DNA of 48,434 nucleotides from Reclinomonas americana ATCC 50394 (GCA_048213135.1 PS015094.1:41104-89537); one strand, 5' to 3'. Counted from the first letter of the stretch, positions 3,796-40,002 are shown. The notes: generated from the letters alone by a model not told the origin. Numbers and translations: made by a program.

Positions 3796-5122
3796 ATGCA
3801 GCACGCGTACGCATTTGTTCCACTGGTGAGTGTGAGAAATTTAAACAGGCACACGCACACACACGCACAGAATGGGAAGAGAGAGAGAGAGAAGGAGAGA
3901 GAGAGACACTCACACACACACACAGCGTCACGATGACCTCTCGAGCACTGCACTAATATCCCGTGCATCCGTCTTGCATTGTTGATCGAATCCGGAGAAA
4001 CTGATGCTTGTGCGTCTCCGTTTCTGCTGCGTGTTTGTGCAGTTGGGAGGAGCGCCTGCTGGTGGTAGTCGACCGTCAGCTGCTGCGGCTCTCTTGTCCA
4101 TGCGAGCTGGTGGGCGTGCTGGTGGTGTGACGTATGCATCGCAGTTGCGGTTGCCGCGCTTGCCTGTGCCGCCGCTGCGCGACACTCTTGCACGCTACCT
4201 GCGCTCTGTGGAGCCCCTGCTGACACCTGAAGAGTTTGCACGGACCAAGGTACGTGCGTGCAGACACAACTGGCGAACAATCGTCGTTTCTCTCGAGCTC
4301 CACCACTGTCTCTGTTCTTGACGGTTTTGCATCTCTTACCGTCGCGCTGGTCGCAGAGTTTGCATCACAGTGTGTCACCCCCTGTTGTCGATCGCTGTGC
4401 CTCATGTGTGTGCTCTTTTTCTCTGTTATTTATCATCCACCTCGTTCGGTCGCTCTTTTCGTCAGTGTTTTTTGCGTTGCGCTGCTTCTGACCAGTGTTG
4501 TCACCCCGCATCATGCCGTTAGTCGCATGGTTTACCACTTCAGCGTCACACTGTGTCTTTGCCAATCGCTGTGCCTCCTGTGTATGCTCTTCTTCTCTGA
4601 TATGTATCATCCGACATTCTCTTCGTCGACGTCTCATCCCTTCACCGTTGCAAGCATTCTCACCCCGCGTCATGTCATTGTTCTTCGGTCTTCTATATCT
4701 GAGCAGTCTGTGGTGACTGAGTTCGGCAAGGCTGGCGGCGTCGGCGAACGCCTGGATGGCAAACTGCGCGAGTACACGGAGCGCAAATGCGATGGCAACT
4801 GGCTGGAGGTTCTGCCGCCGCACGCACTTGACTTCAATGCCGTGCAAAAGTCTGAGCTCACTGTTCTCAACAGTTGTGGCGGGACTGGTGGTTCGACTAT
4901 TACCTGTACATCCGCGATGCCAACCCCAACAATGTCAACTATCATTTTGGCTTCCGCAACGATGCCGGAGCCAAAGATCAGGTCTGTTTCCGGAGCCTCT
5001 GAACGTCCCATCGATATCTGCATTTCTCGACGCATACCTCACGTACACTGTCGTGGCAGGCGCAACGCGTGGCCCGTCTCGTCACCTCCGTGCTCAAGTT
5101 CAAGCGCATGCTTGACACGTTG

Positions 5123-5165
<43 letters not shown>

Positions 5166-6870
5166 TCTCTTTCTTTCTCTCTCTCTACTCACCTTTCTCT
5201 GCATTTCCCACTCGGCTCACTTGTGTGCACCACCCTCAGCGAGACTCTGCCGCCCGACAGGATTCGCGACAAGCCGATTGACATGACGCAGTTCCCCTAC
5301 ATCTTATCGACTTGCCGTATTCCGCACAAGAAACGCGACAGCGTGGAGGTCTACGAGGGCTCGCGCCACATTGTGGTGGCCCACCGCAACCACTTTTACT
5401 CTGTGGATGTCATCCACAAGGACGGTACTCACGCCACCACTGGCGCAATAGAAGCGTTGCGTGTTCTCAGCAGTCTCGTTCTTTTTTGCACTTGTCTCTT
5501 GATCTGATAATCGCGTGCCATGCAGTTCGATTCGCGCACTGGTGACGTCGACCCCAGCCGAGCGCGGCCCGGCTGTCGGCGCTCTGACTGCGTCGGAGCG
5601 TGATTTCTTTGCGGCTGCATACCAGCGCTTGCTGCCGGAGAATCGGCAGTCGCTGGATCGCATCCATCGTGCGATATTGGTGGTGTGTTTGGAGGAGAAG
5701 GAGCCGGCCGACATCCACGAGTGGTCGCACATACTGCAGCATGGCGACGGCCAGAACCGTTGGTTCGATAAGCTTCAGCTGATCGTGTCTCCGTCGGGCC
5801 AGGCCGGTGTCAACATGGAACACTCGAGCGTCGACGGTCACACCCTGTTGAGCTTTTCCAATTTTATCGTCGCCGACAGGTTCGCTGCGCAGAACGAGAT
5901 CGCGCGATGCTGGCGCTGTATTCACACAAGCGCTTGTTCTTCTTCTTCTTCGCACAGCGAGAAGATTGCTAGCACCGGCACCGCTGCTTCGTCGTCGACA
6001 TTGGTGGCGTATGAGCGCCTGCCGTGGAAGCTCAGTTCGGAGAACTTGGCCGACATTGAAAACGGCTGCCGCCAGATCGAGTCGGCGAATCGCGAGGTCC
6101 GTGCTTGCTCAACGTATCGCCAAGTATGTGTGCTCGCTTATTCACTTGTGCTTATGCAGATGGAGGTCCACCTGCTACGTTTCACCGACTTTGGCAAGAG
6201 CACCATTGTCAAGTGGAATCTGAGTCCGGATGCATTTGCGCAAATGGCCATGCAACTGACCTTTTACAGGCATTTCGGTCGTTCGTTTACCACCGACGAG
6301 TCGTGCAACATGCGAAGGAACTTGCGTGGTCGGCTGGAGAGCATTCGCCCGCTGACAACGGAATCGGTGGCCTTTTGCAAGGCTTTCGAGGATCCGTCGC
6401 TGACCGCGCAGCAAAAGGCTCAGCACCTGCGCACGGCGTGTGCGCGCCACCACGAGAACACACGCTTGGCCATTGCCGGCCAAGGCATCGATCGCCACCT
6501 GCAGGGCATGCTCAAGATCGCCGAGCAGGAGGGCATCGAGACGCCTGCGTTGTACCGCGATCCGGCCTACACCATGATGTTCACCTTTCTGCTGTCGACC
6601 AGCCACATCGGCAGCCCCAATCTCACCATGTTTGGCTTTGGTTTGTCGCCACTCTCTGCAGCACAATGGGCACGCCGCTTACCCTCACTTCTACGCTCTG
6701 CAGGACCGGTGCACGAGCGCTGCATCGGCTCAGGTTACTCGGTGCGCGACCACGACATGGTCTTCAACATATCGTCCAAGTGGCTCGGCAGCCGTGTGTT
6801 TGCGCAGCTGTTGGCCGACACACTGCGCGAGATGCGCGCAGTGATTGAGTCGGCAGGAGGAGAAGAGTAA
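3796..6870 (+). CDS. Choline/carnitine O-acyltransferase, about 620 aa, 10 exons
   Basis: Exons 3796-3825, 4043-4249, 4707-4808, 4874-4981, 5060-5118, 5240-5455, 5526-5879, 5958-6096, 6160-6640 and 6704-6870 total 1863 nt in frame. Motifs: LPRLPVPPLRDTLARYL, NRWFDK, catalytic His in EHSSVDG, SPDAFAQMAMQL, GQGIDRHL and LSTS. The first exon/start is less certain. Confidence 0.93.
4391..4680. repeat. Degenerate ~175-bp tandem duplication inside an acyltransferase intron
   Basis: atcgctgtgcctc..tgtgt.tgctct...tctctg.tat.tatcatcc occurs at ~4391 and ~4566. Confidence 0.6.
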
Positions 6871-8400: not shown

Positions 8401-9343
8401 CTCTTTCGATGCCTCTCAACGATCCTCATGTCTCAGCCACGACTTTCTCCTCCTGTTCTCTCTGATATCTGCGTTATATTACCCTTTCCCACATCCCTCG
8501 TACCCAAAATATCCATCACATATCTTCCCACCCTTCATTCACATCTCAATTCCCCATCTTCTTCTTCTTCTTCCACCCGCGACCTTTTCGTTAGCCGCAA
8601 GCGATTCAAGAATCAAAGGGGAAAAAACACAAGAGAGAAAAGAGGCAAGATCATGGACAAATACACACACATTCATGGGCTTTCCAAAAAGCAACGTATT
8701 AACTAACNNNNNNNNNNNNNNNNNNNNNNNNNNNNNNNNNNNNNNNNNNNNNNNNNNNNNNNNNNNNNNNNNNNNNNNNNNNNNNNNNNNNNNNNNNNNN
8801 NNNNNNNNNNNNNNNNNNNNNNNNNNNNNNNNNNNNNNNNNNNNNNNNNNNNNNNNNNNNNNNNNNNNNNNNNNNNNNNNNNNNNNNNNNNNNNNNNNNN
8901 NNNNNNNNNNNNNNNNNNNNNNNNNNNNNNNNNNNNNNNNNNNNNNNNNNNNNNNNNNNNNNNNNNNNNNNNNNNNNNNNNNNNNNNNNNNNNNNNNNNN
9001 NNNNNNNNNNNNNNNNNNNNNNNNNNNNNNNNNNNNNNNNNNNNNNNNNNNNNNNNNNNNNNNNNNNNNNNNNNNNNNNNNNNNNNNNNNNNNNNNNNNN
9101 NNNNNNNNNNNNNNNNNNNNNNNNNNNNNNNNNNNNNNNNNNNNNNNNNNNNNNNNNNNNNNNNNNNNNNNNNNNNNNNNNNNNNNNNNNNNNNNNNNNN
9201 NNNNNNNNNNNNNNNNNNNNNNNNNNNNNNNNNNNNNNNNNNNNNNNNNNNNNNNNNNNNNNNNNNNNNNNNNNNNNNNNNNNNNNNNNNNNNNNNNNNN
9301 NNNNNNNNNNNNNNNNNNNNNNNNNNNNNNNNNNNNNNNNNNT

Positions 9344-9433
9344 TGCGACTCGGCGGCGCCTGCCTCGGGTGCCTCGCCGAAGACGTCGCCGCGCCGTCGT
9401 CTCGACATTTTCAAGAGCATTGCGCCGCTCTAG
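9344..9433 (+). CDS. C-terminal fragment of a Tis11/TTP-family protein (CNOT1-binding-like motif) on a probably inverted contig
   Basis: Reads CDSAAPASGASPKTSPRRRLDIFKSIAPL*. RLDIFKSI resembles the TTP C-terminal RLPIFNRIS motif. It is followed by T/GT-rich 3'UTR-like sequence and flanked by N gaps. Confidence 0.7.
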   Translation, partial: CDSAAPASGASPKTSPRRRLDIFKSIAPL

Positions 9434-10058
9434 GCTCGCGCTGCTGGTGGTGGTGGTGGTGGTATCGTTAGTGATCACTTTTCTTTCCTTTTGTGTTGGG
9501 TTGGTGGTGGCTGAGGGAAGGGAAGGGTTGGGTGGCGGTGGCGGTGCCCTGTGCATATCTTTTTGTAGGAGTTGCACTGCCCCCCGTTCTCTCTCTCTCT
9601 TTCCTCTCTGCTTCACCTCTTATTACTACTATTCAAGTGAGTGTTTTGCTGTGTGTGTGTGTGTGTTAGTTGGTGCATTTCTCTCTCCGTCGGGAGAAGA
9701 AAACTCCACGCAATCGTTATGTTGAGTTGCTTGTGTGAGTTGTTTATGTATCTCGTCGACGGGAATCTCTCTCTTTCTCTCTCCTCCTCTCTCGTGTGCG
9801 GCTGCACCACTTTGTTGCCGCCTCGTGTAGTTGTACGTTTGTTTGTGTTTGTGTCTAGTGTCCATGTTTGTAGTTGATGCGAAAAAATTGCGAAAAACCC
9901 CCACAATTATCTCGGTTCTGTATCGTCGTATGTGTTGTTTGTTTTGGTGTTGCTGTGTGTTGCTGTGTTGTGTTTTGCCTCGGTGTGTGTGTGTGNNNNN
10001 NNNNNNNNNNNNNNNNNNNNNNNNNNNNNNNNNNNNNNNNNNNNNNNNNNNNNNNNNN

Positions 10059-14791: not shown

Positions 14792-15505
14792 ATGTGTCGG
14801 TGCGAGTTTGTCGGGTGCCGAGGGTGCCTGGGCTCGGGCTTTGGGTATGCGTGCTTGGTGGTGTTGACGTTGGCGAACTTGGTGAGTGGCATGCGTGGGA
14901 GAGAGAGAAGGGAGAAGAAGAAAGATGATAATGTGAGGGAATCATGCATTTGTGATGCATTGCGACTCACTCTCACCGTACTCTCTCGCGTGCACTCTTG
15001 TGCGCTCTCTGCACGCTCATTCACGTGCGCAGGAGGGGAGCAATCGCCTTCTCACGCGTGCTCTCTCGTATTCACACACACACACACTCTCTCTCTCTCT
15101 CGCTCACACACTCACACACTCACTCACTCACTCTCTCTCACTCACACACGCACTCTCACTCACTCTCTCACTCACACGCTCACTGCATTCTCTCTCTCAC
15201 TCACTCATTCACTCACTCACTCTCTCTCTCTCTCACTCACTCACTCACTCACTCACTCACTCACTCACTCACTCACTCACTCACTCTCGCACTCACTCAC
15301 TCACTCCTTCACTCCTTCCCTTCTCTCACTCCTTCTCTCTCTCTCTCACTCACTCACTCACTTACTCACTCTCTCGCTCACTCACTCTCTTTCTCTCTCT
15401 CTCTCACTCACTCACTCACTCTCTCACTCACTCACTCACTCACTCACTCATGCACTCACTCACTCACTCACTCACTCACTGTCTCTCTCTCTCTCTCTCG
15501 TCCCT

Positions 15506-15536
<31 letters not shown>

Positions 15537-16011
15537 CTCCTCCCTTCTCCCTCCCTCTGTCTCTCACTCATTTCTCCTTCCTTCCCCTTTCTTGCAGATC
15601 TTCTTCCTCTTCCGCCTCGCGCTCTCCGGCTCGCTGCGCAACGAGGAGATCGACGTGGGATCGCTGTATGCGTTTGAGAGTTTCGTGTAGGCATCGCTCC
15701 CGTATCGTAGTGCGTCGCCGCCTCACTCTGTGTCGCAGACAACAACGCCACCGTGTTCCTCATTGACTCCACGCTGGTGGCGTGCTGCTTCGGCCTCGCC
15801 TCGTCGGTGATCACTATCGTGCACCTCTTTACATGGACAAGCATCTCGCAGGGCATTGTTGCGTTTCCGAAATCTCGTGGGGAATTTCTTTCTTTCTCTC
15901 TGTCTCAGCCTCCGTCTCTCTCTCTCTCCCTCTCGCCTCCTTGTGCCTATCCTTGGTAGTGTTGTTCTCTGTGCACTTTATGTGGCCGCTGCTGTTTATA
16001 TCTGCCTCGCT

Positions 16012-16087
<76 letters not shown>

Positions 16088-16979
16088 NNNNNNNNNNNNN
16101 NNNNNNNNNNNNNNNNNNNNNNNNNNNNNNNNNNNNNNNNNNNNNNNNNNNNNNNNNNNNNNNNNNNNNNNNNNNNNNNNNNNNNNNNNNNNNNNNNNNN
16201 NNNNNNNNNNNNNNNNNNNNNNNNNNNNNNNNNNNNNNNNNNNNNNNNNNNNNNNNNNNNNNNNNNNNNNNNNNNNNNNNNNNNNNNNNNNNNNNNNNNN
16301 NNNNNNNNNNNNNNNNNNGTCTGTTGCACTTGTGCGGTCGGTATACTCCGTGTTCCTTCACGTGGCCACATCTGTGCGTTCTTCATCTGCCTCCTTCTCT
16401 GTGTTTGTGTGACTATGTTGTGTTCCACATGTCAAGTGTTGGATAGTGCAAACCTCCTTCTCCTCACCTTCATCGTGTCCGTCTTCTTCTTGTCCTCTTC
16501 CTTTTCCGCCTCCGCCCTCCTGTATATCCTCACCTTCTCCACTTCCTTCTCCTCCTCCTCCCCCTCCTCCTCCTCCTCCTCATCCTCTCCGTCCTCACCC
16601 CTTCCCCCCTTCCCCTTCTCTTCCTCACTCCCTTCCCCTTTTATCCTTTCTCACTCCCTTCCCCTTTTATCCTTTCTCACCCCCTTCCCCCTTCACGCAG
16701 TCCATCGGCCTGAACCTGTTCTCGTGGGCGCTGACAATCCTCACCATGGGCTTTGCCGGCTCGCAATACAAGCTCGGCGATCCCACCAACGGCGACATTG
16801 GAGGGAAGCAGCGCGGCCTCGCCGCCATGGCCATTACGCAGTGCATCCTGCTGCTGACGCTGTTGATTCTGCTGGTGTTGGTGGTGGCCGGGTTGAGCAA
16901 GGTCGACACGGGGGCGGAGGGGGAGGGGGGTGAGACGGATGGGCAGGAGCTGTCGGTGCCGGAGAGTAGGGCGGGGTGA
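14792..16979 (+). CDS. AWPM-19-like membrane protein, copy 1 (189 aa, 4 exons)
   Basis: Exons 14792-14881, 15598-15679, 15739-15857 and 16701-16979 total 570 nt. LTLANLIFFLFRLALSG..NNATVFLIDSTLVACCFGLASS...HLFTWTSISQGISIGLNLFSWALTILTMGFAGSQ matches the AWPM-19 pattern (NL, GNxAT, HxxxW, WxxTxLAMGxAxKQ). Confidence 0.75.
15070..15530. repeat. (CTCA)n/(CT)n microsatellite in intron 1 of AWPM-19-like copy 1
   Basis: Visible tetranucleotide array. Confidence 0.9.
16015..16086. repeat. (TG)n microsatellite abutting gap
   Basis: Visible array. Confidence 0.95.
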
Positions 16980-17723
16980 GTACGAGTGGCGAGGAGTGCA
17001 CTCAGTGAAACTTTGTACCTGGGCGGTCAGGATTCATTTCATGAGAACATCTTCTGGATGGTCTGTGGCGGTGACTTGCGTCAATTTGCCATCTCGGCAA
17101 CGAAAGCGACATTAGGACTGTGCGTGTTATTGATGTTTACCCAAGGTTGAAATTCGCTGGGTAGAAGTGTGATTGTATGCGTGTGAAGGCGATTGACCCA
17201 TTCTATTGTGCTGCTGGCAATTCTGTTGCTTGAATGTTAGGCGATCGCAGAGTACAACCATCTGCAAACTACTCTGAAGCCCTCTCATTTACTCATACAC
17301 GGCAGCGAATGAATATACTGTCGGCGTTGCGGTCTAACGCGCTCGACTCGTTCCCGATTCTCTCAGCTCCGTCCTTCCTCCGGTGTGTCATGCAGGACAG
17401 CAAGAACTTTCCACCACGCTCGGAGCTGCCTTGGTGCCCAGGCTCCCTTTCTGCGCAAATCACGGATTCGGACCCCACGTACTCATTCGTCGAGCACCAC
17501 AACCCGCAATGCCCACTGCGATGTGGATCTGCATTCCAGCGACGTGACTCGCTCTATTGCAGATGGAATTGCGGAAAGCGCCCACTCTCAACCCCATCTC
17601 ACACGCCATGATGCTCTCCCGTCATGACGCTTTGGTTCTTCAACATGGATAATAAAAAGAAAGAAAAAGAACCAACACACACTCTCTTGGCACAAAAAAT
17701 ACACACAAACGCGGTTACGCGTC

Positions 17724-19464
17724 TCATGCCGACGCCGCCCTCTTGCCGCGACGGAGGTGTGGTTGACCGCCAGTAATCATGCTGACGAGAACGATCCACC
17801 CAAGCTGCGCGAGTGGGGAGTGAGCGCCAAGGGTGGAAAGAACATGAGAACAGCAGCATCAGTCACCTCCATGAATGTTTGCACAATGGCCAGACCAGCC
17901 ATGGCCTTTTGCTTCTGCCCGAGACCCGGTGGACCGTTGACGTCGCCAAGATTGGACTCTGTGTGCGCGGAAGTGGTGAGCGCAAGTGCGTGGGTGCGTG
18001 GAGTCTGCGTGGCGCAGACGCAACGCTTGATGCCGTAGCCCATGGTGAGCACGCCCAAGAAGAGAGCGATGCATGACACGCCAACGGACTGCATGCAAAT
18101 AGTGAGATTGCTGAGAGAAGAGGGTGGTGATACATGCCGAGTCACACGCAACGACAAGTTTGGAGCCCTCCGACCAGGCGAACACTGTGAGAGGAGAAAG
18201 GGACGTAAGAAAGTGGGGATAGAAGGAGGGCGGGAGCGGAGAGAGAGAGAGAAACAAAGAAGAGAGCGAGAGAGAGAGAGAGAGAAGCGAAGGAAAAGGA
18301 GGGACGAGGGGCGACTTGCAAATGGTGCATGTTTGTGGAGGGAAGAGAGAGTAAAATCAGTACAGAGGCGCAACTGTGAAATGAAGGCAGGGAAACACAT
18401 GAAACAATGTAGAACATTCAGGCGGAAGGAGATATAGAGAAAAGGGGGAAAGGGAAGACGGAAGGGGGAAGACGAAGGGGGAAGACGAAGGGGAAGACGA
18501 AGGGGAAGACGAAGGGGGAAGACGAAGGGGGAAGACGGAAGGTGGAAGACGGAAGGGGGCAAGACGGAAGAGGGGAAGACGGAAGGGGGAAGGCGGAAGG
18601 GGGGAAGACGGAAGGGGGGAAGACGGAAGGGAGGAAAACGGATGAGGGGAAAGAGAGAAAGGAGGAGGAGCGACAACGCAGACCGCCTCTTTGTAAGATG
18701 TGCAGTCGCGACAGCAACTTCAGCATGAAACGCAACTGTGGAACACTGCAAACAACGACGCCGCAGCACCAACACACGCCACAATCAGCGTCGTATCAAT
18801 CAGGAACGGACTCGCACGATTGTCTGCAGCAAAGCAACAAAGGATGATGAGCGCAACTCACAAATGCAACTCAAACAACGCGATCGAGAAGCACATACAC
18901 ACGCACACACACACACACACACTCTTGCTCACTCACACACTCGCTCGCTCAGTCACTCAATGTGCAATCACTCACTCATCGCACTCTCCCACTCCTCACT
19001 CACGCTCTCTCTCTCTCACACACACACACACATGCACACACTTGCACACACTTGCACACGCATTCAGTTACTCACTCACTCACTCACTCTCTCTCTCACA
19101 CTCACGCTCTCACTCACACACACACACACACACACTCACTCACTCACACTCACTTGCACACTCACTCTCTCTCCCTTCCCCGTCCCTTCTCTTCCCTCTC
19201 TCTCTCATCTCTCAACTTTCCGTCGCCACAACGGCATTCCCGTTGATAATGCCGTTGACCAGACTGCCAGAGATGGCGCCACGAGAGACATACAGCGTCT
19301 GCGTCACACACAGAGTGAGCGAGACATTGCACACTCTCTCACTCTGCACACTCGCACGCCCCCTCTCTCCCCCCCTCCACACACACGCGCACAAACGCAA
19401 CGAGATTGCAGAGGCACAGCACCCATAGCAGCACAGTGCCGCAGGCGGAACGTCGGCTCCCCAT
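17724..19464 (-). CDS. AWPM-19-like membrane protein, copy 2 (166 aa, 7 exons)
   Basis: Exons 19464-19402, 19298-19217, 18823-18737, 18184-18153, 18088-18025, 17958-17867 and 17804-17724 total 501 nt. The product is collinear with copy 1 (SGSL, FLIDxTL, LTMG, LGD, GxKQ). Three intron positions are shared, with identical 82-nt and 119-nt (87+32) blocks. Confidence 0.78.
18440..18650. repeat. ~13-14-bp minisatellite (GGGGGAAGACG(G)AA) in intron
   Basis: Visible tandem array. Confidence 0.85.
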
Positions 19465-19635
19465 TGTTGCGAGTGTGACGAATATTACAATGTGTGAGAA
19501 ATCGGATCCGACGTCGGAAAAACCGCGCACTGCACGTCACTGCACTTTAGCGTGTGCATGAGCAGCGGAAGCATGTGTCGACGATAGTGAGACAGGTGCT
19601 GCAGCGTGAGAGAACGTTGCGATCAGTGTACATGT

Positions 19636-19936
19636 CGACGTTGTAATGCTGGCGTTTCTGCAAGATCATGAGAAACCAACGCTCATGACAAGATCCTGAC
19701 AGGCGTACAGACAGGCACCAAGACGAGCTGTTGAGGGAACTGTGTCTCCACTTTGCTGTCGATGCCTGGCCATGGATCTTGCGATCGATCGCGCGCGACG
19801 TTGTAATGCTGGTTTCCGCATGAGAAACCAACGCTCATGCATATGACAAGATGTAGACAGATGTGCACACAGGCACCAAGACGAGCTGTTGAGGGAACTG
19901 TGTCTCCACTTTGCTGTCGAATTCTGGCCATGGATT
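19636..19936. repeat. Two ~140-bp direct repeats with ~160-bp period
   Basis: cgacgttgtaatgctgg...atgagaaaccaacgctcatg...caggcaccaagacgagctgttgagggaactgtgtctccactttgctgtcga...ctggccatggat at 19636 and 19796. Confidence 0.9.
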
Positions 19937-20682
19937 CAGATCTCCGCGCTGCGGATCCGGATCCGGATATCGATCCTTCGAGTTCGCGATCGATCACCTG
20001 CGCTTGCACCTCTAGTTGCGGCTCCTCATGTGCACTCCAATGCCACGCAGCGCTCGCAGAGAAAGCAGTGGGCGCTGCAGCGGGAAGCCATCAGGAGCCC
20101 GACGGAGTCAGTCTCCACTTCGCGATCGAATACGATCGATATCTCCGGATCCGGTTCCTTCCCCTTCTCCATTCAACCGCAATTGCAACACAGAGACAGC
20201 AAGAGTCGCTATCGGCAGGACCCACAACAAAGCATGGCAGGGCACTCCGCTGTGACTTCTCCTTCGCATTGTGTACTGCGCGTGATATATGCGTTTATCG
20301 CGATTGCATTATTGCAATGATTGGAAGGTGGAAAATGAAGTGTTTTGTTTTTTCGACCATGTGGTTTTCTCGTTTTTTCCGTGATGTCTGAGTTTCTGGT
20401 GCTCAATCAAGATGGTGATCATCATGCAGCTGTGTTGCTGTTTGGATTAGTAAAGTTGTTGTTGTCGATATCAGCGACATATTGCAGTTTCCCCCACCAG
20501 CGCTTTCTTGGGCACTCGGTTGGTGTGCCCCCACCACCGTGATGGTGCTTCCTGGCACCGCCACACGCCGACGATACTGGCCATGTATAGTGCAGCTGCG
20601 TTGCTGTTGTTGATCACCTGCCCCTTGCAAAGCCGATTCTTCCTTCGCATTCATTCCCCATTATTCTCCCTCCAGCCCACCG

Positions 20683-21995
20683 TCACCTCGGCCCATGCTG
20701 AGGCGGCGGCGGGAACGGCGGATACTCGGGCGGCGGCGGATAGACAGCAGCAACAGCAGACCACACACCAGCTCCTTGTTGCGGCGGTGGCGGCGGCGGT
20801 GGTGGTGGCGGTGGAGGTGGCACTCTCGCCGCATGCAGTGGCGGCGACCGATCCACGCGCATGAGCGCCCGCACCTGCTCCTGCAACGCACGATTCGCCT
20901 CCTCCATCTGCTGCATGCGCGAGGCGTGAGCCTCCACGTACCCGCGCAACTGGCCGACCTCTTCGTCGCGCTCCTGCAGCTGCGCGCGCAGTCCGTCGCG
21001 CTCCATTTGGCACATGTGCAGCGCGCGTCGCGAGGTGTCGAGGTCGGTGCGCAGCCGCCGCACACGAATGTCCATGTCGATCAGCGCGCCGCACCATGGG
21101 AGAGAGGCGCGAGGGTTCTCTGCGATGGGGAGGCAAGTTAGTCGTCAGTTTCTTCTGCAGTTCTCACTTCTTGCGCAACTGTTGTTCCACACACACACGC
21201 CGGCCGCCGTCGACGAGCTGACCACGCACTTGTCGTGCAGGAAGACGGCCTTGATCATAAACTCGCGCGCGTTGTTCGACTGCAGCTCCGGGTTGACCAG
21301 GAGGTCGAGGTCCCACACGACGATGCGCTCTGTGGCGGTGTGCAATGAGAAGAAGCAGCAGCAGCAGCAACAATAACGTTTACAACCGCGACAAGAAGAG
21401 GGAGGAGGCTGGGGAAAGACAGACAGAGGCTGGGAAAAGAGAAGGAGGAGGCAAAGGAGGAGAGCAGCACGGACGCAACAGCAATAAGCAGCAGTAAGCG
21501 AGAAGAGTAGAAAACAGAGATGACGAATAATAAGACGACAGAGAATTCTAGAACAATAACAACAACAACAACAACACAACAACAACACAGCAGGCGGAGC
21601 AGAGCGCCCAGACTTACTCGATTTAAGTCAAGCACAAGAGCCAGAAGGCAAGCTCGATACGAGGAGAGCGAGCAAGCTCACGTACAACCACAAGAGAGCG
21701 ACGATCGCGATCAGCAGCAGCAGAAGAAGGCCACCAATACAAACAAGGAGGAGAAAGAAAGGTGGTGACAGAGGCGTAGGAGAACAGCACTCACATACGC
21801 AACAGAGACTACATCAAGCGAGAAGAGATGACGAACAAGAAAGAAGAGGAGGAGGAGAGCGCTCCCTCATTCAGTCGCTGTGACACGAGCGAGAGAATGA
21901 AAAGCACGCTCTAATCGATGAGAATGGAGAGCTTATTCACAACAAAAAGAGAGTGGTGAGGAAAAAGAAGACCAACAACATCCACAACCACAACC

Positions 21996-22046
<51 letters not shown>

Positions 22047-23696
22047 CCAACACCAATAGCAGCAACAAAAAACCACCACCACACCCACAGCAAGCAGAGT
22101 AAAAGCATCCAGACACTATGTACAAGAACCAGAGGGGAGCCAGAGGCAAGCTCGAAACTCAGAGCGAACAGGTTTCCGCACAACAATGTGAGTGCGAGGG
22201 TCAGGCCACCAACAACGACAAGAAGGAGAAAGAAGGATGGTGGAGGCCGAGGCGTAGGAGAACAGCACTCACACACACAACAGCGACACCATCAGCAAAC
22301 GAGACAAGGAGAAAGAGACCAAACAAACAGCAAGAAGAAGAAGTGATCGAGCACGAGAGGAAGAACATAAAAGAGAAACGGAGAAAGGGCGGCACTTCGT
22401 GATTCACTCAATAGAGAGAGAGCGACAGAGCAAGAGAGCAACGAAAGCCACGGAAAAACGAAGTCATGAAGAACAAGAACAAGAACAACAGGGCATCCAA
22501 GGAACAGCAGCCACACCAATCTTCGCACCACCACCACCACCACTACCACCACTGCACTCCCTTCCCCTCCCACCCTTTCCCTTTCATCCCCTTCCCCTTT
22601 CACCCCCTTCCCCTTTCACCCCCCACCCACCTCCCACCGTAAACATCACATTCGTCCCATCCCCCGACACATCCACACTCGTCACCTGCTCACTCGCCGC
22701 CCCACCGGCCTCCGCCTCCGCCTCCCCCTCAAACACCTGCACCGGCACATCATCATACCCCCGCTCGGGATCCACATGCGACCTCCTGCACTGCTCCGTC
22801 GACCACTGCCGCAGCGCGCCATCATCGTGCCCCGTAAACACCTTGTGCGACTCGGCCACCACCGCCATGCACGTAATCGCCGCATCGGAGGTCGTCAGCG
22901 GCTCACCCACCGTCACCCCCTCGTCGACATTCCACGTGACCAGGCGACCGCGACGATCGGCCGACGCATACGCCACAATCACCAGCTGCTGCCTTTCATC
23001 GTCGTCGTCGCTCCCCACCGCCCCCAGTCCACTCACCGCCGTCTGTCCGCGCACGCAGCCGACCGGCGGCGGCAACGTGCGCACCACCGTCCCATCCCGA
23101 ACACACCACACCACCACATCGCCCGCCTCCGTGCCACCCACCAGCAGCTCCTTGTTGAGCGAGCTCACCAGCGTCGTGATGCGGCTCTCGCTGGTGGCCG
23201 AGCGCCACGTCATGGCGGCCAGTTCGCGACGCTCGCGATCGGCCGCCGGCAATCGCCACGCGCGCAGCTCGTATCCGGTCGGCGACGAGCCGGCCGTGAT
23301 GAGGACGCGCTCCTCCACGGGCGACAGCAGCAGTGCACTCACGCCGCGGTTCTCGCCCGGTGCGTCGGTGTGGGCGTCGATGACCAGGCGGATCTCGGTC
23401 GTCTGCGCGTCGTGCATGCGGACACGGCCGTCGTCGCAGCCGCCAATGATCATCTCGTTGTGCGGGCCGTGGAGGGCGCGGGTGGTGATGAGAGCGCGCA
23501 CGCAGTCGAGCGGGTTGTTGCCGAGGAGGCGCTCGCGATGCACGCGCGCTTCGTGGTCGGGGACGTCGGGGGGTGGGGGTGGGGGTGGAGGGCGAGCAGC
23601 AGGTGGGGGAGGGGGAGGGGGAGGGGGAGGAGGTGGAGGAGGAGGAGCAGCTGGTCTGGCGGGAACGGCCGCCGGGCGCGCTTGGTTTGCTCCCAT
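20683..23696 (-). CDS. WD40-repeat protein with N-terminal MG (putative myristoylation), poly-Pro tracts and C-terminal coiled coil (550 aa)
   Basis: Exons 23696-22631, 21329-21180 and 21119-20683 total 1653 nt. WD-like repeats include GGCDDGRVRMH, GTEAGDVVVW, TGHDDGALRQW and IVVWD. A heptad-like region reads MERDGLRAQLQERDEEVGQLR. Confidence 0.82.
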
Positions 23697-24228
23697 TGTG
23701 AGTGAGTGAGATGTGTTTTTGCCGGATTTCAATGGTAGTTGTCAGGGACCCGGCGTCGTCTGAATTGCACTTGAGCTTTTTTTTTCTGTGCAATTTGCAG
23801 TGTGCACGTGTGTGTGGGTGTTTGGGTGCGGTTCGCAGGTGCGAGTGAGGACCGCAGCTTGGCGTGGTGGTTATTTCCGGCAAAAACCTGACGACATCAT
23901 GACCGGACACAACTTTGCCATTCTTGGAGACGCTCAGCAACAAGCAACAGCAGCCAAAGGCGCGGCTCGTCTCGAGAACTGCGATCAGCATCACTTGAAC
24001 AGTGAACTTCACGCTCGCGCAGCGCACTTGCAGAGACACTCAGCATCAGCAGTTGCACCGATTTCGGGAAAAGGCGAACACCAGACAAACGAAGCAGAAC
24101 TGGGCTGGATCCGAGAAGTCAGCAGAGCAGTCATCGGTGGCGTGATTAAACAGCACGCACTAGACCTGCACAGAAGCTGCTGTCGCGGAACATCCAATCT
24201 CGGGAAAGTCGGGTGAAGCAAGCAAGCA

Positions 24229-24560
24229 GACGCGTCCTTTCGTGGAGGCCGGATACAAATGAGCTTGGCTGTTGGTCGGTAGCGCTGTGCAAAGTGTGGG
24301 CGCTGCAAAGTCGGGTCAGAGTCCGCGGAGCGAGAATAACAGTGGACGCATCCTTTCGTGGCGATGCAGGATACAAAAGAGCTTGGCGTATTGTTGGCGA
24401 CGCTCCTGTCAGTGGCGGGTGGTAGGCGCAGTAAGCCGGGTCGGTATCCGTGGAGCAACGACGCGTCCTTACGTACGGAGACCAGATACAAAAGAGCTTG
24501 GCGTGTTGTCGGTGACGCTCCTGTCGGTGGCAGGTGGTTGGCGCAGCAAGGTATCCGTGG
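24229..24560. repeat. Three degenerate ~116-bp tandem units
   Basis: gacgc.tcctt.cgt.....gatacaaa.gagcttggc occurs at ~24229, ~24345 and ~24460. Confidence 0.8.
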
Positions 24561-24849
24561 GCAAGAAGAGCTGTGGGTCCGGCCGCTCGTCGTCGGTGAC
24601 GAGGTTGAACAGAGGCTTGACAGACGCCGGGGGCACATGCAAGCTTCGGAGAGGCCCGTGAGGAGAAAAGCAGTGGTTCCGGCCGTGGAGGAGTCGTCGG
24701 TGATGAGGGTGAGTAGTGAATTTGACGCACCTGCAGAAACGATCATCGTTTGCTGCTGTCGCGGCACATCGAAGCAAAGTCGGTCCAGATCCATGAAGCG
24801 AGCAATGCTGTGGGGGCGTCGTCATTGGTAAGAAGGTCGTATTAGTTCA

Positions 24850-26462
24850 CTATCTGACTCCCGGCGCTGCGGAAAAGTCTACGAGAGGTGTGTACAGGGC
24901 GGATGGTGCGTGATCCACCTGAGGCAGATCGACGTGCTGCTTTGCCCTGCCACGTCGCTTGTCGACCCACTTGAACCAGAAGCCGAGGGCCAGTGAGGAC
25001 AGCCGGAAGGCCGCCGTGCAACCACCTGCATGGCGTGGAGTTGGGTGAGGAGCGGAGGATGGTGAGGCAGGGGTCAACGCGTTGAACGCAACCAGACAAG
25101 CTGATCAGCAGGCCAAAGTAGGAGGCGAGGGACATGGTGCGCGTCTGCACGTACTCGATGCCCTTGGTGGAGAACATGGTGAAGCTGGTGGAGGGGGGAA
25201 GGGGGAGGGGGGAGGGGAAGGAGAGGCAGGGGTGAGGGAGGGGATGAGGCAGCGAGAAGCAGAGAAGCGCAGAGAGAAAGGACAGCACAGCGAGGGAGAG
25301 CACATCGAGAGAGAGAGAGAGCACAGCGAGAGAGAGAGAGAGAGTACAACGAGTAACAGAGAGAGTGAGAGAGATCAAAGCGAGAGAGAGAGAGCACATC
25401 GAGAGAACACAGCGGAGACAGACCACATGGAGAGAGCACAGATTGAGAGAGGGACAGCACAGCGAGAGGGAGGGCACAGCGAGAGAGAGAGAGAGCACAG
25501 CGAGAGAGAGAGAGTACAACGAGTAACAGAGAGAGTGAGACCACAGCGAGAGAGCACATACGAGAGAACACAGCGGAGACAGACCACATAGGGCGAGACT
25601 ACAGATTGAGAGAGGGACAGCACAGCGAGAGGGAGGGCACAGCGAGAGAGAGAGATCGTGCAGGAAGAAACAGGGAGGGACGGGAGGGGAGAGTGAGGGA
25701 GGCTGGCAGGCAGCGAGAACCAGAGAAGCAGGAAGAGGGAAGAGGAAAGAATTGAAACACAGGGGAGGGAGGGGTGAGAAGACACAGCATAGCAAGAGTG
25801 CACAGTGAGGGAGAGCTCAGCGCAGCGAGAGAGAGAGAGAGCACAGCGAGAGAATAGAGAGAGAGAGAGCACGCAAGAGGCGGCGAGGGAGGGAAGAGAG
25901 GATGAGTGAGAGGCTGTCAGCGAGAAACAGAGAAGTGGGGACGAAGGAAGACCAGGAATGGAATGACGGAGGTAAAGGGAGGAGTAGAGAGAGAGAGGAG
26001 GACGATGGAGGAGGGGAACGAGTCAGAGAAGTGGCAGGGAGAGGGGGCAGGGAGTTGTAGGAGGAGACAGAGAGAGATGGAAGGAATAAAGGAATGGAGA
26101 GTGAGAGTGAACGAGCATGTCTCACTTTCCCCACACAGACCTGATACCCAGCTGCGTGGCTGGGTTTGCCAGCAGCTCGCCACCACCGCCCACAGCAAAT
26201 GCCTCAAACCGCGTGTAGTCCAGCGTCTTGTCGAGATAGGAGAACTGTTGGGCTGTGACACACACTACATCAGCTCGAGAACTCCCCGCACGCACGCCAG
26301 CCACATATCGCTACCTTGCAGATTGAAAACGGCCACTGCAACACACCAAAGTGAGACAAGCACACAATTCGTCTCATCGCAAAAGCAAACGCACGAGAGC
26401 CTGGACTCGTTCCGAGTTGGTTGGAAGACATCTCAACCTGCGCGCCACAAATCAGCATCGCC

Positions 26463-26509
<47 letters not shown>

Positions 26510-27005
26510 AAGACAACTCTGCAAAGAGGTGCGCGCGTGCACATAAAGAACCGACGGCTTGTGCCTCATTCACTCACTCGCTCACTGCTAATGTCTCTTG
26601 ACTCATCACCACACAGCAGCCTCTCCCCTTCTGGCGAAAACTCGGTGGGGAGATACGTGCGCGTGCACGGGAAACCGATGGCTTCTGCCATCCACTCACT
26701 TGCTCACTGTGCACATCGATGCGTCACCACACAACAACCTCTCTCTCTCTCTCTCCCTCTCTCTCTCCAGAGCGCGCGCACGTGTGGACGGAGAATCTGC
26801 AATCTTTGGCCTTCCTTCCTATCTCAATCGCGCATCGCGCGTTCCGTCTCCACAGCGCCGCAGCCTATCTCTCAATCTCTTTCTTCCTCTCACTGTCTCC
26901 CCTATTCTCCCACGCGCTCACTGTAACTCACTGCTTATGTCTGTCGACTCGTCACCACACAGCAGACTCTCCCCCTCTGGCGACAACTCAGCGTGTGGAT
27001 GGGAA

Positions 27006-27039
<34 letters not shown>

Positions 27040-28174
27040 GACAGAGCGCACACGTGTGCATGGAGAAACTGCAAGCTTTTGCCTCCTTCCCTTCCTCACT
27101 TGCTCGCTGTGTCTGTTCCCTCTTCATCATGCCGCAGCCTCTCTCTCTTTCCCTCACTCCCTCTCCCTCTTCCTCACCTTAGTAAGCTCCACAAAATCAT
27201 TAAACGAAAGCTGCGACACAGCAACCACCGTCAGAACACCACCATCTCCGATTCCAACACTCCCCTCTATTGATCACCCTTTCGCCACGCCCCCCTTCCC
27301 CTTCCCTTTCCCTCAATCCCCTTTCCCTTAATACCCCCTTCCCTTCATCCCACGCACCACCGACCCCGGCGGCACCAACTGCGCCAAATCCACACTCTGA
27401 TTCGGCTCATACAACGTCACAAACGACGCCGACGTGCTGTCCACTCCATTCGCAATCAGCGTCAAGTACGGCTGCGATATCAAGTGCGCATTGTCGGGCA
27501 CCGTCAGCAGCTGCTGAAAGTTGACGACCCAGCACGTCGATTGTATGCAGCGATGGTTCCCATCAAACTCCTTCGCCGGCGCACAGTGAGCTGTGAATCG
27601 CCGCGCGGTACAATAGAGGAGGAGAGGACGCAACATCGCAAAAGCTGCCAAACAGCGGCTGACTCGGCGGCATCGGCCACGTGTGCGGAACACACGAGGT
27701 GGCATTGAAACCGACGACCCACAGACACTCCAAGTTGCTGACGGGCCCCGTGATGCAGAAATCAATGGCGGGAAACGACAGTGTGCCCGCCGCTGCCGGC
27801 ATACATAATATGCACCTTGTACAAGCAAGCAAAGAAGGCGGAAGAAGGAGAAGGGGCGACTGACCGACAGCGTTGACCGTCCAAATCGGATGCGCGTACG
27901 AATCAACAATCAGCGCAGTGTAATACCTGCACGCATGCGCGATTACTCCCCTGAGTGTGCGCGCTCCTCTCCCTTCTTCCACTTACCCAAAGAACCCGAT
28001 AAACACCGCCAATGCAATGCACACGGGCACCCAAAACACGATCGATTTGCGCTTCTTGTCGCCACCACTCTCCTGCTGTATTCTCGCCTCTAACCGTCGC
28101 AGGTCGGCTTGTAACGACACGCGAAGGCCTTCCGCGACTTCGTGAAGTTGCTGGTGCGTGACGGCGGCGCTCAT
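24850..28174 (-). CDS. 2-TM protein with Cys-containing extracellular domain, PAC(TMEM206)/ENaC-like, copy A (365 aa, 10 exons)
   Basis: Exons 28174-27987, 27926-27865, 27792-27635, 27570-27358, 27210-27178, 26437-26395, 26335-26315, 26252-26141, 25184-25093 and 25025-24850 total 1098 nt in frame. TM1 is IVFWVPVCIALAVFIGFFGYY, followed by LSFPAIDFC. TM2 is ASYFGLLISLSGGCTAAFRLSSLALGFWFKW. The gene is well supported; the family call is inference. Confidence 0.7.
26560..27100. repeat. Intronic ~350-bp-period degenerate duplication
   Basis: ctcactgct.atgtct...gactc.tcaccacacagcag.ctctcccc.tctggcga.aactc occurs at ~26581 and ~26927. Confidence 0.7.
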
Positions 28175-28236
28175 GGCCGACGCAAGAGAGGAAGAGTGAG
28201 CAGGACGACGTCTGTTCGGATCATCAGTCACGCAGA

Positions 28237-30347
28237 ATGAGCGATGGCGACGTTGCTGAGCTGCGACGACGACTGAGCGTGTTGGAGCGGCATCTTGCAG
28301 CAGCGTCGCAGTGGAGTGGCGACGTTGCGTCAACAGCAGCAGGAGAAGAGGAGAGGCGACGGGACAGGCCCATTCCGCGTGTGTATGCTCTGTGGATCCC
28401 ATTGCTGCTGGCAGGCGCAGTGTTTGCAGGCTTCTTTGGGTGCGAGAAAAGAGAAAGAGAGTGCTCTTGGAGGCACAACAGTTGCTCATCTCTCTGTTCA
28501 GATACTATGTCTATCGCACGGTGTACAGCTTCCAGAACCCTGAGTGGGTTCTTTCCCCGCTCGACTCGCCGGGGTTACCGTTGCCGGCGGTGCTGTTTTG
28601 CTTGTCGGGACCAACGGTGGGCTCGCTGGAGTGTCAGGTGGAGAACGGGACGTATTTCGGGCCGTGCCCGAGCAGCACCGTGTTTCGTAGCACTGCTCTT
28701 TTTTGTTGCAGGCCTCGATCAAGCTCACCACGTACTTCGCCTATAGGTATCCTAGCTCGACGCAACCGCTGTCGGCCAACTTTTGCCAGTCGTTCAGCGG
28801 GCACAACGATTGCATGAGCTACACGTGCTGGATTGTGAATTTCGATGGGTCGGTCGCGGTCGGCCCTCCGCCGGGCTCCTCGATCGTGACCGACACGAGC
28901 TTGCAGTTGATTGTGTCGGGCATTGTGCCGGCGCAGACCACGTCGTACATTACGATCTTTGATCCGAATCGCGCGGTGAACTTGGCACAGTTGATTCCGG
29001 CGGGACAGTTGCTGACGGCGGATGCGGCGCAGCGGCTGGCGTTGTCGTTTGAGAGTGCGCTGAGTGTGGCGGGGTTTGCGGGGACGTTGCGTCGGCGGAG
29101 AAGGGAGAGGGGGAAGAAGGGGAAGGAAAAGGGGGGAAAGGGAAAGGGAAAAGGGGGAGAAGAGGAGAGAGGGGAGCGCGAGTCGCAGAGCGAAGGGAGT
29201 GGAGCGAGAAGAGAATATCAGAGGAGTGCAACGAGAGAAGCAGAGCCGGAAGGAAAGAAGGAGAGGAGCCGAGCGGAGAGAGCGCAACGAGTCGAGGAAA
29301 GCGGAGCTGAGGGAGTGGAGCGGGAAAACACGGCAGAGGGATTTGATCGAGAGAGGAGCAGAGCGGAGAGTGGAATGAGGAAAGCAGAGTGCAAAAAGAG
29401 GAGAAAAACGGAGGGGCTTGAGCGGGAGGAGCATACCGCAGGAGCGCGACGAGGGCAGCAGGTGGAGGGAATCAATGGAGATGGGCATGCCGCGGGAGCG
29501 CGACGAGACGAGCACGGCGGAGGGAGAGAGGAGAGTAGTATATCGGGCAACGAGTGAAGCAGCGCGGAGGGACTTGCACTAGAGAGGAGCCGAGCGGAGG
29601 TAGTGGAATGAGGGGCACAGAGCAAATGGAGAGGAACGAAGAGCAGGGCAGACGGATTGGAGCGAAAGCAGCAGAGCTGAAAGATTGCACCGAGAGGAGC
29701 GGAGAGGAGGAATCGCAATGAGAGGGTGGAAGCGCAGGGAGTGCAGCGAGAGCAGCAGAGCAGCGGAAGCTGAACGAGAGGAACAGAGCGGAAGCGAAGA
29801 GGCGTGTCCTTTCTCTCACTCCTGTTTTCCGTGCAGATTGACCTTCTTCAGCTTGGACGCCACAAAGTACAGGTGACTGCGTGTTAGTCACAGTTGAACC
29901 TTGTTTACTTCTCACCCTCCTGTCGCAGTTACCTGCAAGCCGGTGAGAGTTTCACCAAGTACGGCGCGTCCATCATTGGCCTGGTGCAGGCGCTTCTCGC
30001 CGATCCGTCGTCGCAGATTGGAGTAGCGTTGCGTACCGCGGTGTTCTTTAGTGCGAGAGATGGTCACTTACCTGCTCCGCGCAGATTCACGCTGCCGGCC
30101 ACCAAGACGCTGCAGTTCAACGAGACGCACTCTAACGGAATCACGGCGTTGATTGGCAGTCTCGTCGGCGTGGCTGGTGAGTTGGGGAAGAAGGAGAAGG
30201 ATGAAGAGGAAAGAGGAGAAGGGTGAATGGGAAGAAGAGCGTACAGGATTGCTGCTTCTTTTGCGCGGGAGATGGCCACTTGTGCACTCGAGTTCCGCTA
30301 CCTCGTGTGCGTCACTCGCGTGTGCGCTCGATTCTGAGTCAATTGTG

Positions 30348-30408
<61 letters not shown>

Positions 30409-30894
30409 NNNNNNNNNNNNNNNNNNNNNNNNNNNNNNNNNNNNNNNNNNNNNNNNNNNNNNNNNNNNNNNNNNNNNNNNNNNNNNNNNNNNNNNNNNNN
30501 NNNNNNNNNNNNNNNNNNNNNNNNNNNNNNNNNNNNNNNNNNNNNNNNNNNNNNNNNNNNNNNNNNNNNNNNNNNNNNNNNNNNNNNNNNNNNNNNNNNN
30601 NNNNNNNNNNNNNNNNNNNNNNNNNNNNNNNNNNNNNNNNNNNNNNNNNNNNNNNNNNNNNNNNNNNNNNNNNNNNNNNNNNNNNNNNNNNNNNNNNNNN
30701 NNNNNNNNNNNNNNNNNNNNNNNNNNNNNNNNNNNNNNNNNNNNNNNNNNNNNNNNNNNNNNNNNNNNNNNNNNNNNNNNNNNNNNNNNNNNNNNNNNNN
30801 NNNNNNNNNNNNNNNNNCTCGAGTTCGTCGTACCTACCGTCGTGTCGTCGCTCGCGTCGTGTCGCGTCGTACGTTCTTGTAGTCGTACTAGTGA

Positions 30895-30942
<48 letters not shown>

Positions 30943-31518
30943 CTCTTTGATTCGCAACACGCCTCCGTGGTTTGTTTCTGTCACCTGTTTGACACTCTTC
31001 CTCTCTCGACACACCTCTCCTTTGCTGTGCCTTTGTCCAACACGGCTTCACTCAATTGAGAAGCTCTCTCTCGCTCTGTCCCTCTTTGGTTTGCAACACG
31101 CCTTCGCGGTTTGTTTCTGCCACCTGTTTGGCAATCTTCCTCCTGCTTTCTCCTTCGTCCTCTCGCGACATATCCCTGCTCTTGCTCGCCATTGCTCTCA
31201 GTGGTATCACTGCAGTTTCTCCGCATCCCAACTCTCGCTCTCGCTCTTTCGTTCGCGACACGCTTCGGTGGCTTTGTGCTCGTCTTTGGCATCGCTCTAG
31301 CCTGTTCTCTACACTTTCCTTCAAATGCGCTCCCTCATCCTCACTCGCTGTATCCTCATTCCTCCGCCCTCCCTCGTCCATCAGGTGGTTGCGCCTTTCT
31401 GTACCGCGTCGCCGGCTGGCTCCTCCGCTGGCTGTACCTCCGAAGAAGAAGAACAGCCAAGACGTCATTCACAAGCGAGGAGCTGCAGACTCCGCTAGTG
31501 CACATCAACAGTTCGTAA
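28237..31518 (+). CDS. 2-TM PAC(TMEM206)/ENaC-like protein, copy B (360 aa, 7 exons)
   Basis: Exons 28237-28439, 28502-28681, 28747-29085, 29837-29872, 29929-30027, 30085-30176 and 31385-31518 total 1083 nt. The product aligns with copy A (GFFGYY, LPAVLFC, QPL..FC, TCWIVNF, LAQL.P.G, LLA.P..Q.G, TPLV) and shares three intron positions. Confidence 0.72.
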
Positions 31519-31845
31519 TAAATCCAATTTGTTTCGCGCACGAGTTTGTTCAAGGATCGCATGAGCAGGCCTTCTCGGGTGTTCTCTTGCTGCTGATAAT
31601 GACGGAGAACAAGGAGGAGAAGAGAAACAAAACGCCAATCCAACAATGAACGTGTCACAGTCGCACGTTCTTAACAATGCGAGCTTGAAACAAGGCCATT
31701 TCTGCTCTGCCCTGTCTTCCTCACTTCACTCGCTGAGACTGACAAAGCCCTTGCTCGATACGATCCACATCAGCGACACAAAGCCTCTCCTACACTCCCT
31801 TCCCCCATCAACCCATCCCTTCCCTTCACCGACCTTTCCCTCAGT

Positions 31846-39263: not shown

Positions 39264-39332
<69 letters not shown>

Positions 39333-39344
39333 AGAGAGAGAAAG

Positions 39345-39880: not shown

Positions 39881-40002
39881 TCACTGGTTAAAAAGACTCG
39901 CAGATGATCTCCCCAACGCACCTCTCGTCAGTCTTCCGCCGTGTCTAACTTGCCGTCTCTGTGACAGTTCTGTTAATCCGCCCTCCACTCTCCTCTGCGG
40001 CC

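Follow-up and report, generated by a model that had tools for sequence, protein, structure and literature searches.

In a 48,434-base window of nuclear DNA from Reclinomonas americana ATCC 50394 (GCA_048213135.1 PS015094.1:41104-89537), the predicted introns carry two kinds of 5′ splice site (donor), and the kind follows the last base of the upstream exon (position -1). Positions are counted from the first base of the window, and a slash marks the exon-intron boundary. Ordinary donors (class C, AG/GTnnGT) mostly stand after G. Donors of the form GTT[GT][CA]G, mostly GTTGCG (class S), stand after A, C or T with a single exception. Homologous introns of paralogous genes were found with one kind of donor in one copy and the other kind in the other copy. 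We hold, with moderate confidence, that there are two modes of 5′ recognition and that old introns have been moving between them.

The window contains closely packed, intron-rich genes on both strands. It has nine N gaps (4,658 N) and is about 55% G+C outside the gaps. The two pairs of paralogs share only six intron positions strictly, which is too few for a test, and therefore every modellable gene was modelled from sequence. This gave 51 GT-AG introns in 11 genes, all of them predicted. An open frame and GT-AG introns were required, and the models of the paralog pairs were checked against the partner copy. All of the 51 frame-restoring solutions are GT...AG; GC donors were either listed or screened out, and none was chosen. 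Regions that are repeat-rich, gapped or without clear coding signal were excluded from modelling (1-3900, 7000-9600, 19500-20650, 23700-24850, 36150-39950, and 45150-46200). Intron retention breaks the frame or brings in a stop in 45 of the 51 introns. For class S, a frame shift or stop results in 18 of 21. The six introns that are in frame and stop-free were accepted on paralog colinearity or motifs, and three of them, including 30028-30084, belong to class S with colinearity or motifs as their sole basis. The introns are presumably spliced as modelled.

After a -1 G there are 27 ordinary donors and one GTTGCG. After any other base there are 20 GTT[GT][CA]G donors (16 GTTGCG, three GTTTCG, and one GTTGAG) and three other donors (Fisher p=4.4e-10). 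Roughly four in ten introns (21/51) are therefore of class S. The -1 base also departs from the exon composition at the corresponding codon positions. A -1 G was expected 6.5 times in class S and was found once (binomial p=0.0046), and it was expected 10.4 times in class C and was found in 27 of 30 (p=5e-10). An earlier note on this DNA had proposed, from paralog pairs, that the -1 base and the donor change together. The correlation holds across the 51 introns of the window, whereas its paralog-only basis consists of two switching pairs and one exception.

The two classes differ at the 5′ end and look alike elsewhere. In class C (n=30), A is found at -2 in 16 of 30, G at -1 in 27, G at +5 in 23, and T at +6 in 18, and positions +3 and +4 are loose. 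Class S (n=21) follows the heptamer GTTGCGT, with T at +3 in 21, G at +4 in 18, C at +5 in 20, G at +6 in 21, and T at +7 in 17; the counts from +3 to +6 are partly set by the class definition, and that at +7 is not. The -1 base of class S is C in ten, A in six, T in four, and G in one. The median length is 67 nucleotides (nt) for class S and 68.5 nt for class C, with a common mode of about 55-70 nt. A branch-like CTNAY motif lies in the last 50 nt of 19 of the 21 class S and 24 of the 30 class C introns, in most cases at a distance of 13-26 nt from the 3′ end. The acceptor consensus from -4 to -1 is GCAG in both classes. A YAG acceptor is present in 49 of 51 introns, and the class S acceptors are all YAG save one AAG. 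The GT...AG ends and the yUnAy branch site of U2-type introns were thus found among the predicted introns. In the same set, the U12-type donor RTATCC (0/51) and branch site TCCTTRAY (0/51) were not found. Given the shared length mode, branch-like motif and acceptor, the steps after 5′ recognition are probably carried out by one major-type spliceosome.

Since the models were built with the hypothesis known, the donors were re-picked blind to the motif. The acceptor was kept fixed, and the in-phase GT with the highest leave-one-gene-out codon log-odds was taken. This pick coincided with the model donor in 35 of the 51 junctions. The table of the pick itself, which is noisier (1/23/14/13), gave p=1.7e-4, and the table for the junctions where pick and model agree (1/18/14/2) gave p=7e-7. 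The pattern might nevertheless be an artefact of gene modelling, in which GTTGCG is only a frequent word near true, different boundaries. The introns were modelled without transcripts, six are in frame and stop-free, and the two strands together have 58 occurrences of GTTGCG against about 21 expected by a rough estimate, with 41 of the 58 not being modelled donors. Against this, the 17 that are modelled donors lie exactly where the frame must change, and for three class S donors there is no other in-phase GT. The junctions are colinear with 12 carnitine acyltransferase homologues and with the paralogs. The acceptors are YAG, one AAG apart, and in most of the introns a branch-like motif lies at its normal distance. 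The motif-blind pick also recovered 14 of the 21 class S donors. An artefact is therefore hardly credible.

The same intron can carry either class. The comparison used a tail-to-tail pair of AWPM-like genes, whose copies are 37.2% identical (61/164 aligned residues; global alignment of spliced products), and a divergent pair of genes for a two-transmembrane, Cys-rich membrane protein called channel-like, whose copies A and B are 35.3% identical (118/334; global alignment). Features of both pairs are listed in the table. The strictly shared positions are alignment columns 30, 57, and 97 in the AWPM-like pair and 75, 299, and 330 in the channel-like pair. All of the ten donors cited in the earlier note were present with the flanks that it gave, and each of its five pairs fell in the same alignment column and phase. 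Intron 1 of the AWPM-like genes, in phase 0 after Asn-Leu in both copies, begins TTG/GTGAGT at 14882 and CTC/GTTGCG at 19401 (minus strand); TTG and CTC are synonymous Leu codons. The channel-like intron before Phe-Thr, in phase 2, begins AG/GTCTGT at 26140 (minus) and GC/GTTGCG at 30028. As the earlier note had it, both donors are shifted where both copies end in non-G (A/GTTTCG at 15680 with A/GTTGAG at 19216, phase 1; T/GTTGCG at 15858 with C/GTTGCG at 18152, phase 0). Its counter-example was recovered as well (G/GTGAGT at 30177 against G/GTTGCG at 25092, both in phase 1). The sixth shared pair, at column 75, is G/GTAAGT against G/GTGCGAG.

In 11 of the 12 introns at these positions, the donor class agrees with the -1 base. 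Compared by hand, two of the six pairs differ in their -1 G status, and both of these also differ in class; the other four agree in -1 G status, and three of them agree in class too. Since paralogs of only 35-37% identity have class S at positions that they share, one old position can hold either class. Donor class, as far as the models go, is a state of an intron and not a lineage, and the homologous introns appear to have changed class rather than being gained twice. A paralog comparison without an outgroup assigns no direction to the change. Seven introns are specific to one paralog (18736, 18024, and 17866 in AWPM-like copy 2; 27864, 27634, and 27364 in copy A; 28682 in copy B). Together with two channel-like pairs of offset introns, they indicate that intron gain, loss or sliding also occurred.

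A recently spread introner family does not explain class S in this sample. An all-vs-all blastn of the 51 introns of the window gave matches in 21 of 1275 pairs, all of them short, of low-complexity or microsatellite type, and at most 41 bits, and the class S introns did not group by body similarity. No boundary duplications were found in class S (direct repeats of 0.43 nt on average, 3 at most). Its terminal inverted repeats are no greater than those of class C (complementarity 4.81 vs 4.80 of 10). The earlier note was thus right that the shifted introns are not one recently spread introner family, and their presence at old positions shared by paralogs agrees with this. An older wave of insertion is a separate matter. 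An element carrying a GTTGCGT 5′ end could have spread long ago and its bodies decayed, with the ordinary introns being older still and lying at AG/G protosplice sites. Insertion without a protosplice site would put class S after any base but G, as was found, and would leave a rigid 5′ motif on unrelated bodies; class S also makes up four of the seven paralog-specific introns. That share, however, is not above the seven of 12 introns at shared positions. Class S is found at four of the six positions shared by the diverged paralogs, in both copies at two of them. It does not differ from class C in length or 3′ signals, and the repeats and body similarity that insertion might leave were missing, as described above. 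We consider an old wave quite improbable.

In the textbook view, major-type 5′ splice sites are found by pairing with the 5′ end of the U1 snRNA (small nuclear RNA), and weak pairing in the exon can be offset by stronger pairing in the intron. The earlier note had called the class S donor shifted, a word that suggests a U1 register moved by one base. In order to examine this, duplexes were folded with duplexfold, bulges and loops being allowed, against the human/consensus 5′ end as given by Tan et al. 2016 (PMC4856993), without pseudouridines; this end may not be that of the organism. The mean duplex energy was -6.69 kcal/mol for class C, -0.84 kcal/mol for class S, and -2.68 kcal/mol for exonic GT decoys (n=811). 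Class S differed from class C with p=2e-8 and was weaker than the decoys with p=4e-5, so the idea of a shifted register failed on energy. Pairing by hand gave the same picture. In the shifted or bulged register, G at +4 and C at +5 face two U1 uridines, and two isolated stacks of two pairs are left. H/GTGCGT (H, any base but G), which lacks the extra T, would form the same pairs, and therefore the invariant T at +3 is not explained by reading with one U1. On these energies, GTTGCGT is predicted to be a poor shifted-register site that does not make up for the lost pair between -1 G and C9 of U1. Of the compensatory interconversion of old introns that had been proposed, the part that stands is that one old position carries either class in step with the -1 base; compensation through U1 pairing fails on duplex energy.

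A single standard U1 could still read both classes, with GTTGCGT in a shifted or bulged register whose intronic pairs offset the missing -1 G:C9 pair. The G at +6 and T at +7 of class S mirror the G at +5 and T at +6 of class C, as a one-base shift predicts, and the -1 G and the GTTGCG motif almost exclude each other. In human cells, both shifted and +2/+3 bulge registers have been proven (Tan et al. 2016, PMC4856993). In contrast, the mean energy of class S is weaker than that of decoy GTs. The C at +5 (20/21) stands opposite a U1 uridine in either alternative register by hand pairing, and the invariant T at +3 adds nothing over H/GTGCGT. The expected continuum of H/GTAAGT and H/GTGAGT is almost missing (1/23). 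In humans, about 1.5-2.1% of sites use such noncanonical registers (shifted, +2/+3 bulge, and asymmetric loops; PMC4856993), against 21 of 51 introns here. One U1 reading both classes is therefore judged unlikely. GUUGCGU is more probably read by something other than standard U1 5′-end pairing.

In the two-mode reading that we prefer, class C would use ordinary U1 pairing and depend on the -1 G. Class S would use a second, putative reader of GUUGCGU that is indifferent to the exon. The simplest candidate for it would be a variant U1-type snRNA with the 5′ end ACGCAAC, which could form seven Watson-Crick pairs with positions +1 to +7. Rfam and tRNA scans of the window gave no hits, so there is no U1 gene to read there. 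An intron may change mode along a plausible mutational path in which H/GTTGCGT becomes G/GTTGCGT, the state seen at 25092, and then G/GTGCGT when one T is lost; GTGCG is in fact the start of four class C donors. If switching goes through a -1 G, the counter-example of the earlier note at 25092 is an expected intermediate. The fullest form of this reading has a dedicated second 5′ splice-site reader serving about 40% of introns, so that two systems would run in parallel into a single U2-type spliceosome and old introns would pass from one to the other. We put it forward as a tentative possibility and rather doubt it.

Several points weigh against two modes with switching introns. All 51 introns come from sequence models and not from transcripts, in a single 48-kb window. 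The models were hypothesis-aware, and at 16 of the 51 junctions another in-phase GT has a coding score at least equal. The association has exceptions, G/GTTGCGT at 25092 on the one side and three non-G exons with other donors on the other (A/GTGAGT at 32819, A/GTATGG at 47827, and T/GTTAAT at 42952). Inside modelled genes, 13 sense-strand GTTGCG sites are unused as donors, so that the hexamer alone is insufficient or some exons were missed. The class switch appears in only two paralog pairs, and the paralog-only test is underpowered. Gain or sliding at the offset and paralog-specific introns could mimic class switching. The U1 energies assume a human/consensus 5′ end instead of the organism's own U1 sequence.

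Parts of the pattern are familiar from other systems. Burge and Karlin's maximal dependence decomposition (MDD) model is said to capture dependencies between the exonic -1 G and intronic positions +3 to +6 of U2-type 5′ sites, and Carmel et al. 2004 reportedly described dependencies among 5′ splice-site positions. Here too, loss of the -1 G goes with a stronger and more fixed intronic signal, and exon and intron information can be traded at homologous sites. However, the intronic signal in those dependencies is the U1-complementary GTRAGT and is graded, whereas here it is GTTGCGT, for which no pairing with standard U1 is predicted, and the distribution is two-peaked. Noncanonical U1 registers were reportedly described by Roca and Krainer 2009. 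Class S resembles them in the extra U after GU and in a G-U pair displaced by one base from the consensus. In the human examples, contiguous pairs are kept, as in a shifted-register test oligonucleotide (PMC4856993); here G-C replaces A-A, and the predicted pairing is lost.

U12-type introns likewise have a rigid intronic 5′ motif, no exon consensus, and ordinary introns beside them in the same genes, but class S lacks their donor and branch-site signals in the 51 introns and has the branch-like motif and acceptor of the ordinary class. Introners and introner-like elements are known from Micromonas, Aureococcus, fungi and dinoflagellates. Class S is like them in being a recognisable intron class at positions without AG/G, and unlike them in its lack of copy-to-copy similarity, duplications and inverted repeats and in its presence at old paralog-shared positions. 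The introners of Amoebophrya (PMC7789003) are mostly non-GT-AG with inverted and direct repeats, and the class S introns are not like these. In open-access text, no paper describing a GTTGCG donor class was found.

Table. Genes and introns of the two paralog pairs, with two class S introns of the carnitine acyltransferase gene (positions in the window; column, position in the paralog alignment)
Feature	Position	Strand	Donor	Phase	Length (nt)	Column	Remarks
AWPM-like copy 1	14792..16979	+					Exons 14792-14881, 15598-15679, 15739-15857, 16701-16979; three introns; stop-free translation
Copy 1 intron 1	14882..15597	+	TTG/GTGAGTG	0	716	30	Ordinary class
Copy 1 intron 2	15680..15738	+	A/GTTTCGT	1	59	57	Only in-phase GT candidate
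Copy 1 intron 3	15858..16700	+	T/GTTGCGT	0	843	97	N gap inside
AWPM-like copy 2	17724..19464	-					Seven exons, six introns (donors 19401, 19216, 18736, 18152, 18024, 17866); stop-free
Copy 2 intron 1	19299..19401	-	CTC/GTTGCGT	0	103	30	Class switched vs 14882
Copy 2 intron 2	18824..19216	-	A/GTTGAGA	1	393	57	
Copy 2 intron 3	18185..18736	-	A/GTTGCGT	1	552		Copy 2 only; copy 1 has an uninterrupted exon at column 86
Copy 2 intron 4	18089..18152	-	C/GTTGCGT	0	64	97	
Copy 2 intron 5	17959..18024	-	C/GTTGCGT	1	66		Copy 2 only; in frame, stop-free; basis only colinearity with copy 1
Copy 2 intron 6	17805..17866	-	G/GTGACTG	0	62	150	Copy 2 only
Channel-like copy A	24852..28174	-					Two-transmembrane Cys-rich membrane protein; nine exons, eight introns; stop-free; introns 2, 3, 4 weakly signalled
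Copy A intron 1	27927..27986	-	G/GTAAGTG	2	60	75	
Copy A intron 2	27793..27864	-	G/GTCAGT				Copy A only
Copy A intron 3	27571..27634	-	T/GTTGCGT	0	64		Copy A only; AAG acceptor
Copy A intron 4	27260..27364	-	G/GTCGGT				Copy A only
Copy A intron 7	25185..26140	-	AG/GTCTGTG	2	956	299	Before F-T
Copy A intron 8	25026..25092	-	G/GTTGCGT	1	67	330	Sole -1 G/GTTGCG intron counted; only in-phase GT candidate
Channel-like copy B	28237..31522	+					Seven exons, six introns; stop-free
Copy B intron 1	28440..28501	+	G/GTGCGAG	2	62	75	
Copy B intron 2	28682..28746	+	T/GTTTCGT	2	65		Copy B only; restores frame and equal conserved-Cys-to-QPL spacing in both copies
Copy B intron 5	30028..30084	+	GC/GTTGCGT	2	57	299	Class switched vs 26140; in frame, stop-free
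Copy B intron 6	30177..31384	+	G/GTGAGTT	1	1208	330	N gap inside
Carnitine acyltransferase intron 4	5119..5239	+	C/GTTGCGT	2	121		Colinear with 12 homologues; PF00755 on flanking exons
Carnitine acyltransferase intron 5	5456..5525	+	C/GTTGCGT	2	70		Colinear with 12 homologues; only in-phase GT candidate

The stop codons of the AWPM-like genes lie at 16979 and 17724. In copy 1, the last exon matches Pfam AWPM-19 (PF05512) weakly (E=0.035, 14.7 bits, cutoff 27), and an AWPM-19 cluster is found in the Atlas at rank 8 with a score of 0.80, which is a lead only. The name channel-like, taken from the earlier note, is not supported as a description, since no match to any channel family was obtained in Pfam, the homologue search or the Atlas. 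The main exons of both copies matched no Pfam family. A search of 338 candidates of 158-504 aa with a channel-like exon gave no homologue at E<=0.01, and the best Atlas score was 0.85, to unnamed clusters. By eye, the protein has hydrophobic N- and C-terminal segments and a Cys-rich middle. The start codons of A and B (28174 and 28237) diverge on opposite strands with 62 bp between them, and therefore the promoter and the 5′ untranslated regions must be tiny or shared.

Some channel-like introns were harder to model. Copy B intron 5 (30028-30084) was accepted because it is colinear with the paralog and has CAG after a branch-like CACTTAC. Copy A intron 3 is the only GT-AG solution found that restores both the frame and colinearity with copy B. 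Three introns of copy A (27260-27364, 27571-27634, and 27793-27864) are poorly signalled: one is purine-rich with a GGGGAG acceptor and without a branch-like motif, one has an AAG acceptor, and one is in frame and stop-free. Copy A may be decaying or may be partly mis-modelled. A 44-nt version of copy A intron 3 and a 32-nt version of copy B intron 2 were dropped on frame or paralog colinearity. An alternative frame for copy A exons 6-7 led to conflicting phases; the retained model offsets two introns of A from those of B. These offset pairs (27177 vs 29086 and 26314 vs 29873) lie a few bases apart with different phases (0 vs 2), and one of them also differs in donor class. They could be due to intron sliding or independent gain.

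Further donor-like sites were seen. The candidates G/GTTGCGT at 2881 (minus), A/GTTGCGT at 33352 (plus), and T/GTTGCGT at 38247 (minus) end open frames and look like donors, and they were dropped from the counts with no acceptor that could be fixed. If a donor, 2881 would be a second -1 G exception. Tandem units occupy long first introns of a WD40 gene (21479 and 21803, minus) and of a small gene at 46226-48042 (47553 and 47681, minus), and each unit has a sense-strand T/GTTGCGT. These sites could represent decoys, donors of a recursive or alternative kind, or small exons that were missed. Modelled introns contain five of the nine N gaps, and the three gaps that were inspected directly adjoin (CTCA)n, (CT)n or (GA)n-type repeats. 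Such repeats fill long introns (15060-15480, 18890-19200, 25200-26100, and 26460-27060). Because CTCAC is also a branch-like motif, these introns carry dozens of branch-site look-alikes.

The most conserved exon of the window belongs to the carnitine acyltransferase gene (Pfam PF00755, E=5e-94), and its best homologues are 33-36% identical. No close relative was found in the protein collection at the lengths searched, and an exact 26-base exon word had no match in metagenome contigs. A gene at 40003-45122 (plus), which we take to be of the MutL/PMS mismatch-repair type from motifs such as DQHAAxER, has ten modelled introns, and one of its exons is a long disordered linker. Intron 4 contains an N gap and a 15-nt tandem repeat. 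The donor of its intron 5 (42952-43052, plus), T/GTTAATG, is the only frame-compatible one. No other site is closer to the A-rich shifted-register motif, GUUAAGU in human, than to GTTGCG. An apparently intron-less gene of about 300 codons lies at 36553-37460 (minus); the N-terminal half of its product is acidic and Gly/Arg-rich, and no match in Pfam was obtained.

In this window, a large proportion of the introns that otherwise look ordinary thus has a 5′ motif that is predicted to pair with standard U1 worse than exonic GTs do, together with the same branch site, acceptor and length as the other introns. About 40% of the introns of this genome would escape gene finders trained on a single donor model. 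If transcripts confirm the models, R. americana would be a natural system for the study of 5′ splice-site definition without canonical U1 pairing and of whether variant U1 snRNAs serve a whole class of introns. It would also be a natural system for how introns move between modes, which bears on the conversion of U12- to U2-type introns and on intron gain at sites other than protosplice sites.

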